64,000 bases of DNA from Klebsiella phage KMI11: the sequence record MN101225.1; one strand, 5' to 3'. Under the pieces are notes generated by a model. That model ran no database searches. It saw only the letters and a list, made by a program, of their open reading frames with translations, and was not told the DNA's origin. The translations under genes and the position numbers were made by a program. Below are positions 39,028 to 43,986 of the stretch, one piece after another. Each line of letters starts with the position of its first letter. Position 1 is the first letter of the stretch.

Positions 39028-39035
39028 TATAAATA
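39028..39035 (+). promoter_or_regulatory. late-type TATAAATA promoter upstream of the tRNA cluster
   Basis: TATAAATA 13 nt upstream of the first tRNA. Confidence 0.4.
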
Positions 39036-39638: not shown

Positions 39639-39800
39639 AATAAGAACGTGGCAGTTCTTGAAGATGAGTTTGAGTCCTATAAGATAATGCCGAGGACGAA
39701 GCTGTTTGTTCCCACGGAATAAGCTCTATATTCGTAAGATTATATCTTTAGCGTGTTCTACATCAAGCTACTTGTTAGTACTTCAAGAACCCGGATAAAT

Positions 39801-39876
39801 GCGGAGTAACTTCAGTTGGTAGAATGTTGGGCTCATATCCCGACACGCGCAGGTTCGAGTCCTGCCTCCGCCTCCA
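39801..39876 (+). tRNA. tRNA-Met (CAU) or Ile-lysidine type
   Basis: D-arm TTCAGTTGGTAGAA, anticodon loop CUCAUAU, T-arm GCAGGTTCGAGTCCTGC. The acceptor pairing is imperfect at the base, so the 3' end is uncertain. Confidence 0.6.
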
Positions 39877-39956: not shown

Positions 39957-40052
39957 AATTAATATTCATTCAACGCGTCTACAGGGGTTGAACTGATCAT
40001 TCTTCTCTTAATTTCGTATGAAGTCCTCATGATGGATGGAGTGAATATTGAT

Positions 40053-40128: not shown

Positions 40129-40224
40129 ACAATGAAGGAATGGTGGAAAAATACACGGCCCGCAAAACGCTGTGGCTGTCGCTAAGCGAATTGTGTCTAT
40201 ATGACACTTCCTTCACCAAATACT

Positions 40225-40309: not shown

Positions 40310-40375
40310 AATTTATGAAAGTTAAACGCTGCCCATAGCAGTGGTACATCAACAATTAGATGATTAGCTTTCCAT

Positions 40376-40617: not shown

Positions 40618-40694
40618 CTCCGTATAGCTCAGTCTGGTAGAGCGTTCCATTTGGGATGGAAAGGTCGAATGTTCGAGTCATTCTATGGAGACCA
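40618..40694 (+). tRNA. tRNA-Pro (UGG)
   Basis: Acceptor CTCCGTA/TATGGAG, anticodon stem TTCCA/TGGAA, loop UUUGGGA, T-arm GAATGTTCGAGTCATTC, ACCA. Confidence 0.8.
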
Positions 40695-40700
40695 AATTAA

Positions 40701-40844
40701 CGGTATGACACAATACAAGATGGCGTAAGCTGAGTAGCGGGATTGCAGTCTCGTTCAGATATGCTATCGAGTATGGGTGATATATTAAACACATGGATTC
40801 TGCAAAGTCCATGTGACTCGGTTCGAGGCCGGGCATACCGTCCA
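40701..40844 (+). ncRNA. tRNA-like stable RNA of ~144 nt: acceptor stem plus T-arm plus CCA, with an internal insertion of ~70 nt
   Basis: 5' CGGTATG pairs perfectly with 3' CATACCG, followed by T and CCA. T-arm CTCGG-TTCGAGG-CCGGG. Internal hairpin CATGGA-N10-TCCATG. There is no standard D or anticodon arm. Confidence 0.45.
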
Positions 40845-41018
40845 ATCACTTGCCATTGAGAAATATATTATGAAATATTACGGCTTCAAAACATCCCATT
40901 TCGGGAAAGCATATCGTACAGAAAACATTGATAGACGTCGAGCATATTACGAATCACTGCATAAAGCAGGACGTTCTCGTGCACGACAAGAAGGCCAAAA
41001 ACAAGCGAAGGAAATAGA

Positions 41019-41384
41019 ATGAATATTTTTATTGGTGTTGCAAATAACGTAAATGCTATTACGGTGAAATTACAATGGAATCGTCCAACTAATTTTGCTT
41101 TAGGATTATGTAAATCTGAACGTGATTTAATGCTTCATGCTGATTTTGCATACACTTTTGATGAACGCAAAGGTATGTGGGTCTGGATTAAATGCAGATA
41201 CGAAGCATTAATCAAATATGAGTACTTCAGTGAGCGTGATATTCAAGAAGTTATTGCTTATCATTCTGGCTGTAAAGTAAGTAAACTGCGTCAAGTTATT
41301 CCGTTTACTAATGCTTCAAATGTAGAAGAGCTAATTACTGATTTTAAACGAATTTATCAGGCGAAATATGATGAAAGATTCTAA
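41019..41384 (+). CDS. hypothetical protein
   Basis: 121-aa ORF, ATGA-coupled to its neighbours. Confidence 0.45.
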   Translation: MNIFIGVANNVNAITVKLQWNRPTNFALGLCKSERDLMLHADFAYTFDERKGMWVWIKCRYEALIKYEYFSERDIQEVIAYHSGCKVSKLRQVIPFTNASNVEELITDFKRIYQAKYDERF

Positions 41385-41601
41385 AGGTCGAGACGTACAA
41401 GTTGGTGATATCGTTTTCTACGGAGAACGTACATATAATAAAGGTGGTCGTGGTTCTATGCGCTGCGGTCGTATTACAGATATTGCTTCAGGATTGGCTA
41501 AAGTAGATAACGACTACGTTGCAATGCGAAGCAAATCATTCGTTAAGGTTTCTCCTATGTTCGCAACAATGTGGGAAAACGGAACGATTTTCGAGATTTA
41601 A
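41368..41601 (+). CDS. hypothetical protein
   Basis: 77-aa ORF overlapping the upstream stop. Confidence 0.45.
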   Translation: MMKDSKGRDVQVGDIVFYGERTYNKGGRGSMRCGRITDIASGLAKVDNDYVAMRSKSFVKVSPMFATMWENGTIFEI

Positions 41602-41655
41602 TGCTACAAGAATAACCTGTTATTATTACTACATCAAAACAAACAAGGAAAAAGA

Positions 41656-41880
41656 ATGAAACGTATCGCACTGATTGTTGACCAAGAAGCTATGTTCGCT
41701 GCTACCGGTAAATTTCATCCGGTGAGTAAATTTGTTGCTCGCAGCGAGAAAATCGTTGGTCTGGTAGAAACTGTCGCAGGTGATGTAATTGTTTCTATTA
41801 AAACGTCTGAAATTTCTCCAGTAGTTAAAGTAGCAGTTGAAAATGACTTCTGGGAAGTAGCTGATTTTATGTGTGAGTAA
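41656..41880 (+). CDS. hypothetical protein
   Basis: 74-aa ORF with an AAGGAAAAAGAATG RBS, followed by a terminator. Confidence 0.5.
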   Translation: MKRIALIVDQEAMFAATGKFHPVSKFVARSEKIVGLVETVAGDVIVSIKTSEISPVVKVAVENDFWEVADFMCE

Positions 41881-41912
41881 TTCTGCCTAGCAGGTGGATA
41901 AGCCCGACAAGG

Positions 41913-41938
41913 CGCCCTCTTCGGAGGGCTTTTATAAA
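41913..41938 (+). terminator. rho-independent terminator
   Basis: GCCCTC-TTCG-GAGGGC hairpin followed by TTTTAT. Confidence 0.6.
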
Positions 41939-42054: not shown

Positions 42055-42255
42055 ATGATGCGATTAGTTAAAGTAGTTGTAGAAGAATCTGAATACATGG
42101 GCGATAGCCGAATGATTGAAGAATTCGTTACTGTTGAGGCAGATTCTGAATCTGAAATCGCTGATAAAGTTTATCGTCATTTTGATAATATGTCTGATTC
42201 GTATGGCACAATGTATAACATTTATCGTTTAGATGTAATAGTACATATCAACTGA
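42055..42255 (+). CDS. hypothetical protein
   Basis: MMRLVKV start with an AATGAGGAAAAT RBS. The longer listed ORF start falls inside the tRNA. Confidence 0.45.
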   Translation: MMRLVKVVVEESEYMGDSRMIEEFVTVEADSESEIADKVYRHFDNMSDSYGTMYNIYRLDVIVHIN

Positions 42256-42265
42256 GGAAATTGAA

Positions 42266-42823
42266 ATGCATATTAAATTTGGACAAGTTATTCCTAAAGG
42301 CTTAGCAATGGCAATTACCACTTGGGAAAACGATGCTGATCGGTATTCTACCCAAATGGTTTATGGCTTAGAAAAAGAAGAGATTAATCAAGTAATTCAC
42401 GTTCTTGAATGGTTCTCTTCTAATGGTCGGCGTGGTGAATACCTTGGAAATAATGATTACAACCATGAAGCAATTCTTGAAAAGCTTCATACTGAACAGA
42501 AGTATGTAACTCCTGAATTTTCCAAGAAATTCTTTGGCGTTGATGTTCCTGCATATGATTGTTCAGACGAAGAGTTTGATGCTTATTTAGATAACCACTA
42601 TTCTTGTTCAAATGAAGTTATGTATGCTATTCAGGCTTGGTTGGGTAATCCAATTGAATATGATTATGATTTCATGCGAGTATTTGAGAAAGTTGAAATC
42701 TTTGATATTAAAGAAGAAATTCGTATTCCTGATGCTCCGGTTGCATTCCATATTGGAATTACGTATAAGCAGAAAGAAAGCCCATTAAAAGTTGATTGGT
42801 TGAAATACGTGAAGGAAAAGTAA
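42266..42823 (+). CDS. hypothetical protein
   Basis: 185-aa ORF with a GAGGAAATTGAAATG RBS. Confidence 0.5.
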   Translation: MHIKFGQVIPKGLAMAITTWENDADRYSTQMVYGLEKEEINQVIHVLEWFSSNGRRGEYLGNNDYNHEAILEKLHTEQKYVTPEFSKKFFGVDVPAYDCSDEEFDAYLDNHYSCSNEVMYAIQAWLGNPIEYDYDFMRVFEKVEIFDIKEEIRIPDAPVAFHIGITYKQKESPLKVDWLKYVKEK

Positions 42824-43273
42824 ATGGATATTGGTTCAGGTAGTTCATATCCATCATGTGCTTTGAGCAACTTTGCTCCTCATAAATTTATCTATGATGG
42901 CGTAGAATGTGCATCAATGGAGGGATTCTTGCAGTCCCTCAAATTTTCTTCGCCTGAAATGCAAGCACATGTATGTACATTAGTTGGTAAATCGGCTAAG
43001 TTCAAAGGTAAAAAGAAACGGTGGTGGCCAACTCAAACACTTTATTGGAAAGGCGTGCCAATCCATCGTGCTTCAGAAGCGTATCAGAATTTACTGACAG
43101 GAGCATACGATGCACTTAGTAAAAATGAAGGATTCAGAAAAGCTTTGGCTGCTACCCGGAATGCTACGCTCACTCACAGTATGGGCAAAAACAAAATTTC
43201 TGAAACGATTTTGACTGAACGCGAATTCTGTAATCAACTTTATCGTTTGAGAAATGCTATAAATAATCAGTAA
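42824..43273 (+). CDS. NADAR (YbiA-like) domain protein; predicted ADP-ribose N-glycosidase
   Basis: ALSNFAPHKFIYDGVECASMEGFLQSLKF and GFRKALAATRNATLTH follow the YbiA/NADAR pattern (LSNF...F..G..F.S.E..FQ..KF). ATGA overlap with the upstream ORF. Confidence 0.6.
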   Translation: MDIGSGSSYPSCALSNFAPHKFIYDGVECASMEGFLQSLKFSSPEMQAHVCTLVGKSAKFKGKKKRWWPTQTLYWKGVPIHRASEAYQNLLTGAYDALSKNEGFRKALAATRNATLTHSMGKNKISETILTEREFCNQLYRLRNAINNQ

Positions 43274-43284
43274 TATAATTATCT

Positions 43285-43412
43285 TGTTCAGTGTTGAAAT
43301 CGGTAGACATGGTGACGGACACCTTTTGAGCTCGCATATTGCATCATATGCTGGCGACGGTGGTAAATCGCTGACGGAATCAGTCGTGCAGGTTCGAGTC
43401 CTGCCTGAACAA
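43285..43412 (+). ncRNA. tRNA-like stable RNA of ~128 nt (tRNA 3' half plus an insertion); resembles T4 species 1/2 RNAs or a degenerate tRNA
   Basis: 5' TGTTCAG pairs with 3' CTGAACA. Perfect T-arm GCAGG-TTCGAGT-CCTGC. D-loop-like AAATCGGTAGA. No canonical anticodon arm and no encoded CCA. It abuts tRNA-Arg. Confidence 0.4.
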
Positions 43413-43415
43413 TCT

Positions 43416-43492
43416 CGGGGCATAGCTCAGTTGGATAGAGCAGCGGACTTCTAATCCGCAGGTCGAAGGTTCGAATCCTTCTGCCTCGACCA
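43416..43492 (+). tRNA. tRNA-Arg (UCU)
   Basis: Acceptor CGGGGCA/TGCCTCG, D-arm GCTCAGTTGGATAGAGC, anticodon loop CUUCUAA, T-loop TTCGAAT, ACCA. Confidence 0.8.
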
Positions 43493-43496
43493 TTTC

Positions 43497-43581
43497 GCAT
43501 CGATGGTGGAACTGGTATACACAGGAGACTTAAAATCTCCCGCCGCAAGGATTGAGGGTTCGAATCCCTCTCGGTGCACCA
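43497..43581 (+). tRNA. tRNA-Leu (UAA), type II
   Basis: Acceptor GCATCGA/TCGGTGC, anticodon stem GGAGA/TCTCC, loop CUUAAAA, long variable arm, T-arm GAGGGTTCGAATCCCTC, ACCA. Confidence 0.8.
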
Positions 43582-43583
43582 AA

Positions 43584-43681
43584 TTAAGACCCCGGGAATA
43601 GTTGCTTAAACTTAGTGAGGAATTCAACGGCAGATACGTCTGTGCAACTACATAAGGTTCGAATCCTTATTTCCGTCTTAA
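43584..43681 (+). ncRNA. tRNA-like element of ~98 nt between tRNA-Leu and tRNA-Thr (pseudo-tRNA or stable RNA)
   Basis: 5' TTAAGAC pairs with 3' GTCTTAA. T-arm ATAAGG-TTCGAAT-CCTTAT. Internal hairpin CAGA-TACG-TCTG. It does not fold as a standard cloverleaf. Confidence 0.35.
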
Positions 43682-43757
43682 GCCGATTTAGCTCAGCTGG
43701 TAGAGCGCTTCACTTGTAATGAAGATGTCGCGGGTTCGACTCCTGCAATCGGCACCA
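43682..43757 (+). tRNA. tRNA-Thr (UGU)
   Basis: Acceptor GCCGATT/AATCGGC, anticodon loop CUUGUAA, T-loop TTCGACT, ACCA. Confidence 0.8.
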
Positions 43758-43958
43758 AATTCGAAGGGAAACTTGCGTATGCCCTCGTTGAGTCGTCAGA
43801 TAGAAGAGAATGGTTCGTCCATTGCCGCTAGTCGGTTGTTCCCTGTCGCAAGCATAACCTCCTGACGCTATACTCCTTTGGATGAGACTGATGCCTCCGA
43901 GTTCAAAGGAATGAATTTAGCAGGTCATCTGCCAGTAGGTGATGCTGTCGATTCTCAG

Positions 43959-43986
43959 AGCCCTGTCTTCGGACGGGGCTTTTTAG
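43959..43986 (+). terminator. strong rho-independent terminator closing the tRNA region
   Basis: 9-bp stem AGCCCTGTC-TTCG-GACGGGGCT followed by TTTTT. Confidence 0.7.

Follow-up and report, generated by a model that had tools for sequence, protein, structure and literature searches.

Three tRNA-framed RNA segments in the tRNA island of Klebsiella phage KMI11: an orthologue of T4 rnaC and two further conserved families

The transfer RNA (tRNA) island of Klebsiella phage KMI11 was analysed within a 64,000-nt stretch of sequence record MN101225.1 (hereafter the window) and comprises 16 tRNA genes, which both ARAGORN and Rfam place on the plus strand between 39048 and 43757. On the same strand, 0-6 nt from neighbouring tRNAs, are three segments (1, 2 and 3; Table 1) that combine an acceptor-like helix and a T-arm with a non-tRNA interior; tRNA-Arg begins 3 nt past segment 2, and segment 3 begins 2 nt past tRNA-Leu. 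The original prediction, made from the sequence without database searches, had noted in all three a perfect 7-bp terminal helix and a canonical T-arm, and next to each a bona fide tRNA; these observations are confirmed by direct reading of the sequence and by the ARAGORN calls. Its interpretation of the segments as the counterparts of the T4 RNAs C and D is partly supported: segment 1 corresponds by homology to rnaC, whereas segments 2 and 3 correspond to neither T4 RNA, and rnaD was undetected.

The 3.4 kb around the three segments share 99.7% identity with KPV15, a Klebsiella phage of the genus Jiaodavirus (Tevenvirinae) and a relative of T4, and none of the segments is annotated in the KPV15 and YP11 records. 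The window contains 18 copies of the T-loop motif GGTTCRANNCC, where 0.62 would be expected. The 16 copies in the island belong to 13 tRNAs and the three segments; the remaining two (5955 on the minus strand and 29243 on the plus strand) have no acceptor-like pairing around them and were dismissed as chance matches.

The assignment of segment 1 to T4 rnaC (species 1 RNA) is based on a leave-genus-out covariance model (R3), for which T4 and six further sequences from outside Jiaodavirus were used and which yields a single match in the window, at 40701-40845 (89.6 bits, E 5.7e-21). Full-length copies are matched by the rnaC model in six genera. In the alignment of nine sequences, for which RNAalifold predicted five helices and the full 7-bp acceptor was then added, 94.1% of the cells of 45 pairs are paired and 25 pairs are compensatory; none of 500 shuffles was as good on any measure, and slid controls gave 34-43% pairing. 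The fold is modelled as a four-armed giant cloverleaf consisting of the acceptor, the long arm, the 10-bp hairpin and the T-arm. The acceptor covaries between T4 (CGAUUCG/CGUUUCG), fHe-Yen9-01 (CGGUCCG/CGGACUG) and the window (CGGUAUG/CAUACCG), where it is followed by the 3' NCCA noted in the original prediction, which reads UCCA. Within the long arm, the stretch 40722-40765 is an invariant core that contains a GUA bulge of 3 nt and an AG/A internal loop, and the loop of hairpin 3 is a 6-nt CNNCAA, not an anticodon loop. Segment 1 shares with T4 rnaC all five helices and the core GUAAGCYGAGUAGCG...CGUUCRGAUAU; the annotated T4 gene (NC_000866 70908-71046) shows the same architecture with the core GCCGUAAGCCGAGUAGCG…CGUUCGGAUAUGG. 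Segment 1 thereby represents already-known biology, unannotated in the relatives KPV15 and YP11.

Homologues of rnaC were found with a 16-mer of its core that is common to the window and T4 (CGTAAGCYGAGTAGCG), and by blastn with T4 rnaC, in Tequatrovirus, Karamvirus (PG7), Kagamiyamavirus (EcS1), Tegunavirus (fHe-Yen9-01) and metagenomic T4-like phages. The gene lies between two tRNAs in PG7 and EcS1 and at the operon end in T4. The segments had been predicted to sit exactly where T4 encodes its RNAs C and D, but synteny is loose: the T4 order is tRNA-Arg, rnaD, rnaC and terminator, whereas in the window rnaC lies after tRNA-Pro, segment 2 lies ahead of tRNA-Arg, and segment 3 is located between tRNA-Leu and tRNA-Thr. 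The 3' flank of T4 rnaC (CACUUGCC…GGCAGGUGGAACCCCGACAAGG plus terminator) is recognisable in the window, where open reading frames (ORFs) spanning ~1 kb (40870-41880) split it into 40846-40856 and 41886-41935. The ORF block has the appearance of an insert at a junction that ancestrally joined rnaC to its terminator. None of the four small ORFs between rnaC and the terminator (41914-41929 and a U run) has a Pfam match. A second rnaC subtype was observed in Marfa-like phages (Marfa itself, L025, and loci L026, L027 and L043) and in Melville (L038:2929-3069); it keeps the acceptor, hairpin 3 and T-arm, has a long arm of unrelated sequence, and scores 75-88 bits with the rnaC model. In fHe-Yen9-01, rnaC is followed by an apparent CCA-ended cloverleaf tRNA, read by eye in a record stretch that carries no tRNA annotation.

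Segment 3 represents a family common to T4-like and jumbo phages, whose members always lie within tRNA clusters. According to blastn, its core at 43596-43673 is ~95% identical in the Salmonella phages S16 and STML-198 (Gelderlandvirus), and the core is ~80% identical in Citrobacter phage CF1 (Moonvirus) and the unrelated jumbo phages N1M2, Moabite, 2050HW and ParM-25. A covariance model of the family (R1) gave 14 strong matches of 75-110 bits, covering Jiaodavirus and all of these phages, and matched no copy in the T4, PG7, EcS1, Melville and fHe-Yen9-01 loci; real tRNAs score only E 0.01-1. It is for this segment that the predicted terminal helix has to be amended, since the outer 7-bp helix, although present, is found in Jiaodavirus only, where it lengthens the stem to the exact tRNA boundaries, and the helix conserved throughout the family is the inner 6-bp one. 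Covariation was assessed in a manual element-by-element structural alignment, which replaced MAFFT and model-based alignments that placed the 5' strands of the jumbo phages one column off register and understated covariation. It contains 23 pairs (96.5% paired), 10 of which are compensatory and spread over all four helices, namely the acceptor-like helix (CGGGAA/UUUCCG, UCGGGA/UCCCGA, UCGAGA/UCUCGA, GUAGAA/UUCUAC), stem 2 (UAGUUGC/GCAACUA, UAGUCU/AGACUA), the UACG hairpin (GCAGA/UCUGU, GCGGA/UCCGU) and the T-stem (UAAGG/CCUUA, GUAGG/CCUAC). The internal loop has the consensus UUAAAC(U/C)UAGUGAGGAAUUC(G/A)A(C/A)G, of which only 3-4 positions vary across T4-like and jumbo phages. A scan for this loop motif (metagenomes, GTDB, 185,579 species genomes) returned 74 loci, comprising 70 chance occurrences without the hairpin and T-arm and four real Jiaodavirus-like contigs, and the family appears to be confined to phages of Enterobacterales. 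Pairing of the loop with the 16S anti-Shine-Dalgarno sequence was considered and dropped, as only four contiguous pairs were seen by inspection.

Segment 2 was matched by blastn in 178 phage records. Its frame hardly varies among Jiaodavirus, Karamvirus, Kagamiyamavirus and Serratia phages and is also conserved in Winklervirus-type phages. It consists of the acceptor UGUUCAG/CUGAACA with A73, a D-arm-like hairpin with the loop (A/G)AAU(C/U)GGUAGA, and a T-arm, which in the window equals that of tRNA-Met (39800-39876). The predicted absence of normal D and anticodon arms therefore needs qualification: all three segments are without a conserved anticodon loop or a tRNA call, but segment 2 keeps its D-arm-like hairpin. 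In contrast to the frame, the centre exists in two mutually unalignable versions. Type A, the allele of the window, forms three or four short hairpins (33 pairs, 95% paired), of which the one at 43330-43355 has two compensatory pairs. Type B, carried by BovinicusUrsus, M12a, Marfa, EcS1 and CHI14, folds into a cloverleaf with a three-helix arm in place of the anticodon arm, a D-arm-like stem of three perfect base pairs that covaries from G-C to A-U, and the unpaired conserved motifs GUUUGAA and GAGUAAG; its alignment contains 29 pairs (99% paired, 11 compensatory), and 0/500 shuffles were as good. Both types occur within Jiaodavirus with identical frame sequences and flanks that are ~96% identical, and therefore the centre of segment 2 has been swapped as a cassette. 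A derivation of segment 2 from tRNA-Leu was dropped, as alignment scores against the 16 tRNAs of the window do not single out Leu. In GenBank, variants of segment 2 are labelled tRNA-Ser, tRNA-Thr, tRNA-Val or tRNA-OTHER, none of which is backed by ARAGORN or Rfam, and many related records place a 'hypothetical protein' coding sequence over segments 1 and 2.

Table 1. Positions of the three segments, their structural elements and neighbouring features
Feature	Position	Strand	Remarks
Segment 1, T4 rnaC (species 1 RNA) orthologue	40701..40844	+	144 nt including encoded UCCA; covariance model and covariation
Segment 1, acceptor-like stem	40701..40707 with 40834-40840	+	CGGUAUG/CAUACCG, then U73-CCA 40841-40844
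Segment 1, long arm in D-arm position	40714..40772	+	helices 2 and 3: 23 pairs, 11 compensatory
Segment 1, hairpin 3 in anticodon-arm position	40790..40815	+	10-bp stem, 9/10 pairs compensatory
Segment 1, T-arm	40817..40833	+	CUCGG-UUCGAGG-CCGGG, loop UUCGAGG
Segment 2, tRNA-framed RNA with type A centre	43285..43412	+	128 nt; no tRNA call
Segment 2, acceptor	43285-91 with 43405-11	+	UGUUCAG/CUGAACA, then A73 at 43412, no CCA
Segment 2, D-arm-like hairpin	43294..43310	+	2-3 bp stem, 11-nt loop AAAUCGGUAGA containing GG
Segment 2, candidate payload region	43311..43387	+	hairpins 43311-23, 43330-55, 43358-73; wholly replaced in type B genomes
Segment 2, T-arm	43388..43404	+	UGCAGG-UUCGAGU-CCUGC, loop UUCGAGU; G-C to A-U in Karamvirus
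Segment 3, bounded by flanking tRNAs	43584..43681	+	includes outer 7-bp helix UUAAGAC (43584-90)/GUCUUAA (43675-81)
Segment 3, conserved core	43593..43675	+	~83 nt; acceptor-like helix, stem 2, UACG hairpin, T-arm
Segment 3, acceptor-like inner 6-bp helix	43593-98 with 43670-75	+	family-wide
Segment 3, stem 2	43599-605 with 43644-50	+	
Segment 3, near-invariant 24-nt internal loop	43606..43629	+	UUAAACUUAGUGAGGAAUUCAACG; holds palindrome GAAUUC
Segment 3, UACG-capped hairpin	43630-43	+	
Segment 3, T-arm	43653-69	+	UAAGG-UUCGAAU-CCUUA
tRNA-Pro	40618..40694	+	directly upstream of segment 1, ends 6 nt before it (ARAGORN, Rfam)
tRNA-Arg and tRNA-Leu	43416..43581	+	between segments 2 and 3 (ARAGORN, Rfam)
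tRNA-Thr	43682..43757	+	abuts segment 3, zero gap (ARAGORN, Rfam)
T4 late-promoter-type motif TATAAATA	43258..43265	+	19 nt upstream of segment 2; consensus match only
Second TATAAATA late-promoter copy	39028-39035	+	12 nt ahead of first tRNA; consensus match only
Terminator-like hairpin GCCCUGUC-UUCG-GACGGGGC with U run	43960..43984	+	ends distal tRNA sub-cluster; read from sequence
Further M12a-type RNA loci	L115:601-721, L116:601-688, L117:601-722		

The check suggested with the original prediction, a search for conservation and compensatory change in related phages, turned out positive for segments 1, 2 and 3. None of the three is called as a tRNA by ARAGORN, which finds no transfer-messenger RNA (tmRNA) in the window, and Rfam 15, searched at the gathering score and at E<=10 with the window and the variant loci, returns only tRNAs and no tRNA match for the segments; against the tRNA family RF00005, the type B allele of segment 2 scores 17 bits (E 1.4). 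Matches to YrlA (RF02553; 22-25 bits versus a gathering score of 69) are mere T-arm overlaps, and Plastid-ycf2 and similar matches were likewise dismissed as sub-threshold echoes of T-arms. The canonical acceptor/T-arm feature, a 7-bp acceptor on a 5-bp T-stem with a UUCRANY loop, can be read from the sequence. No conserved 7-nt anticodon loop occurs in segments 1-3, given the 6-nt loop in rnaC and a type B P3 loop that differs between genera. A role as anticodon-nuclease decoys was rejected, as no payload has a conserved 7-nt anticodon-like loop. Rfam finds no intron family at E<=10, and no anticodon stem flanks the inserts in type A or rnaC. The rnaC models R2 and R3 do not match at 43285-43412 or 43584-43681 even at E<=1, blastn (word size 7) and nhmmer searches with T4 rnaD gave no match in the tRNA island with E below about 1, and the families of segments 2 and 3 are absent from the T4 locus. 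By these comparisons, segments 2 and 3 each form a separate family of their own, distinct from both rnaC and rnaD.

Exchange of cassettes is not limited to segment 2. In Raoultella phage M12a, the slot between tRNA-Leu and tRNA-Thr holds an alternative ~115-nt RNA with the terminal helix GAAGAAU/AUUCUUC and ACCA (L022:2811-2925), which also replaces segment 3 in ~47 other Jiaodavirus genomes. RNAs of this type lie between tRNAs in Taipeivirus (Ackermannviridae; May, KpS110), the N4-like Efbeekayvirus P184 and Aeromonas T4-like phages as well; all of their helices covary, and they have no Rfam match. The tRNA-like scaffold is thus found with alternative centres in rnaC (two long-arm types), in segment 2 (types A and B) and in the Leu-Thr slot (two RNAs). 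Sharing extends across unrelated virus families that infect the same hosts, with segment 3 in T4-like and jumbo phages and the M12a-type RNA in Klebsiella phages of Straboviridae, Ackermannviridae and Schitoviridae. It is a speculative and rather improbable extension of these data that phage tRNA islands serve as exchange platforms for tRNA-scaffolded small RNAs, in which alleles would compete for the slots between tRNAs and the payload arms would be effectors specific to the host, for instance takeover factors or counter-defence decoys.

Additional conserved RNAs may be present in the island. Past tRNA-Thr, a ~210-nt non-coding stretch (43758-43985) that ends in a terminator is conserved in PG7, BovinicusUrsus and locus L034, and has evident compensatory changes around an invariant GAGACUGAUGCCUCCGAG. 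Its 5' hairpin and AAGNCGUC loosely recall the start of T4 rnaD, with no statistical similarity; a by-eye rnaD match at 43873-43905 (GACUGAUG..GAGU..AAGGAAU) is not claimed, as blastn and nhmmer gave nothing significant. The spacer upstream of the first tRNA-Met (39639-39799) has long blocks in common with CF1 (L113:3270-3456), AUGCCGAGGAC…GUUGUUCCCAC and GUGUUCUACNUCAAGCUACUUGUUAGUAC, which suggests another conserved RNA. In CF1, a copy of segment 3 and a 3' end like that of rnaD lie in the 600-nt gap between tRNA-Gln and tRNA-Met. The spacer 40131-40221 terminates in …UUCACCA, similar to a tRNA 3' end, and is restricted to Jiaodavirus.

With respect to transcription, the late-promoter motif has 15 matches in the window compared with 6.0 expected, and the two TATAAATA copies listed in Table 1 suggest two late-transcribed sub-clusters, as in T4. 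The copy before segment 2 and the terminator-like hairpin at 43960-43984, which is kept in PG7 and BovinicusUrsus, bracket the distal sub-cluster; this arrangement fits the late timing of T4 RNAC and RNAD, which are late RNAs on northern blots with a function not established (PMC9697503, PMC3014915), in agreement with the original statement that even in T4 the function was unclear. The ~1.75-kb T4 tRNA transcript is the precursor of eight tRNAs and of the species I and II RNAs (PMC2330249). Segment 2 sits 11 nt after a stop codon at an ORF-to-tRNA boundary in the window, PG7 and EcS1. The preceding ORF of the window (42824-43273) belongs to the Pfam family Phage_30_3 (GP30.3, E 5e-56), and a gp30.3-like gene also adjoins the tRNA/small-RNA cluster in PG7 and S16.

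Ribonuclease P (RNase P) cleaves model substrates that consist of the acceptor stem, T-stem and T-loop alone, with a stack of ~11-12 bp and a single-stranded 5' leader (PMC11143913). The corresponding geometry is found in segments 1 and 2 (7+5 bp acceptor/T-stem stack) and in segment 3 (6+5 bp, or 7+5 bp with a bulge), and the 5' leaders are provided by the 3' trailer of the upstream tRNA (segments 1 and 3) or by the 11 nt after the stop codon (segment 2). Since segments 1-3 have the acceptor/T-arm module that RNase P accepts, they may plausibly be processed together with the tRNAs from one polycistronic precursor.

The identity, structure, covariation, placement and cassette polymorphism of the segments are established in this analysis; processing, stability and a trans-acting function are what we infer for KMI11. 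Our favoured explanation, which we regard as fairly probable, is that the segments encode three different stable non-decoding small RNAs on a tRNA scaffold, transcribed with the tRNA operon, in which the non-tRNA arm is the payload. RNase P would recognise the acceptor/T-arm module and generate the 5' ends. The 3' ends of segments 2 and 3 would result from the RNase P cut at the next tRNA and subsequent exonuclease trimming, and segment 1 would supply its own encoded UCCA end. The tRNA-like fold would shield the RNA from decay. The payload would be the part that takes the place of the D and anticodon arms, i.e. the invariant bulged arm of rnaC, the 24-nt loop of segment 3 and the swappable centre of segment 2, and most probably binds a factor, probably a protein, of the host or phage and acts in trans late in infection. 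In rnaC and segment 3, conservation is higher in the unpaired motifs of the payload than in the helices.

Several observations weigh against this explanation. Processing in KMI11 rests on inference. Only segment 1 folds exceptionally as a single sequence (-57.6 kcal/mol, z -5.2), segments 2 and 3 folding no better than shuffled sequence (z -0.4 and -1.0), so that the case for both rests on comparative data; for type A, these amount to five distinct sequences and three compensatory pairs with a shuffle control that is marginal on some measures, and its covariation is consistent with a conserved structure but thin. No complement of the segment 3 loop occurs elsewhere in the 64-kb window, no partner of the RNAs was found, and no Rfam family matches them. 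T4 deletions of the tRNA region grow on laboratory hosts, and therefore any function is conditional. Finally, each of the remaining spacers between tRNAs of the island that measure 60 nt or more also pairs its own two ends (39957-40052, 40131-40221, 40310-40375 and 39650-39795; terminal helices of 8-14 bp, z -2.1 to -4.2). Instead of marking a trans-acting RNA, end-pairing may therefore be a general feature of processing or insulation.

The last point leads to the main rival, a possible but clearly less probable explanation in which the segments, like the other self-closing spacers, act only in cis as punctuation or insulation that lets tRNAs fold separately and offers defined cut sites to RNase P and other nucleases, the excised pieces being by-products; the ORF messages 40870-41880 and 42058-43273, for example, would be parted from the tRNA blocks. 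Besides the self-closing spacers, it would account for segment 1 at a tRNA-to-ORF boundary in the window and for segment 2 at an ORF-to-tRNA boundary in the window, PG7 and EcS1, and the acceptor/T-arm module is sufficient for RNase P (PMC11143913). Such punctuation needs helices only, and yet it is the unpaired motifs that are conserved most, including the GUA bulge and AG/A loop of rnaC and the 24-nt loop that segment 3 retains from T4-like to jumbo phages; rnaC is not tied to messenger RNA boundaries, given its positions between tRNAs in PG7 and EcS1 and at the operon end in T4; and in T4, RNAC builds up as a stable RNA late in infection (PMC9697503).

A very improbable explanation, already disfavoured, is that the segments are decaying tRNA pseudogenes, disrupted by insertions, devoid of function and retained by linkage. 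It would agree with a tRNA island in flux (M12a has an extra tRNA-like sequence uncalled by ARAGORN), with the T-stem mismatch in the STML-198 copy of segment 3 and with the inconsistent GenBank labels of segment 2 variants, but it is contradicted by covariation of the inserted arms: compensatory substitutions preserve every helix, inserted arms included, across genera and virus families, the inserts bear invariant motifs, and rnaC persists in full length in six genera. Least probable of all, we consider that the segments are unusual functional tRNAs, with an intron or an expanded arm, that, spliced or unspliced, are aminoacylated and used in translation. The almost invariant acceptor and A73 of segment 2 resemble an identity set, the type B P3 loop of Jiaodavirus (UUGGUAC) has the format of an anticodon loop, and segment 1 encodes CCA; yet EcS1 and CHI14 have UUUAAGCAC as the type B loop, no anticodon stem-loop is conserved, type A is without a 7-nt loop candidate, the rnaC loop has 6 nt, and the annotated 3' end of T4 rnaC is …CGUA and not CCA. 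Rfam detects neither a group I intron nor a tRNA, and the inserts are 50-80 nt long, whereas bacterial tRNA group I introns are far longer.

For about fifty years the T4 RNAs C and D have been without a known function. This work provides a covariation-backed structure model of rnaC with a short list of invariant unpaired nucleotides, and places rnaC as one among several tRNA-framed RNAs, which include two or more additional families. GenBank phages contain ~750 copies of rnaC, ~180 of segment 2 and ~85 of segment 3. The families of segments 2 and 3 are undescribed and present in neither Rfam nor GenBank annotation, and cassette exchange on tRNA scaffolds is likewise new. Close Klebsiella phages with ~96% identical flanks and different cassettes constitute natural isogenic-like pairs for tests of host range and defence. 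If the payloads are indeed effectors, phage tRNA clusters would have to be re-read as RNA-effector islands, and new models would be needed in annotation pipelines, which now leave such genes blank, mislabel them as odd tRNAs or overlay them with hypothetical proteins. The outcome is a set of concrete handles on an old question, with no mechanism yet.

Among known systems, T4 rnaC (139-140 nt) is the closest to segment 1, being alike in the five helices, invariant core, strand and operon, with a homologous 3' flank. The two differ in the acceptor (fully Watson-Crick in the window, with two U-U mismatches in T4), in the 3' end (UCCA versus UACA) and in the position (after tRNA-Pro, with a 1-kb ORF block before the ancestral terminator, versus after rnaD). 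T4 rnaD (species 2 RNA, 119 nt) is, like the segments, an RNA of the tRNA operon with a tRNA-like 3' end (…GCGCACCA) and is stable; unlike them it has no T-arm, and nothing in the window is significantly similar to it. Non-aminoacylated tRNA-like modules that serve tRNA enzymes as processing handles, and so free attached or adjacent non-coding RNAs, are also known from the TMER transcripts of murine gammaherpesvirus 68 (MHV68) and from MALAT1 mascRNA (pointers: PMC12239594, PMC8457004). These are eukaryotic systems (RNase P plus RNase Z, RNA polymerase III or II), in which the cargo is located 3' of the tRNA-like unit and not inside it as here. In tmRNA and YrlA, an acceptor and T-arm module is likewise joined to a non-tRNA domain; unlike these, segments 1-3 are without a tag reading frame or a Ro-binding stem. 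The engineered tRNA scaffold of Ponchon and Dardel, used to produce recombinant RNA in E. coli, retains the acceptor, T-arm and elbow for processing and stabilisation of the RNA by the cell, and a cargo RNA takes the place of the anticodon arm. Segment 2 of type B is built exactly alike, whereas the phage RNAs are natural and evolved, and in rnaC and segment 3 the cargo occupies other arm positions.

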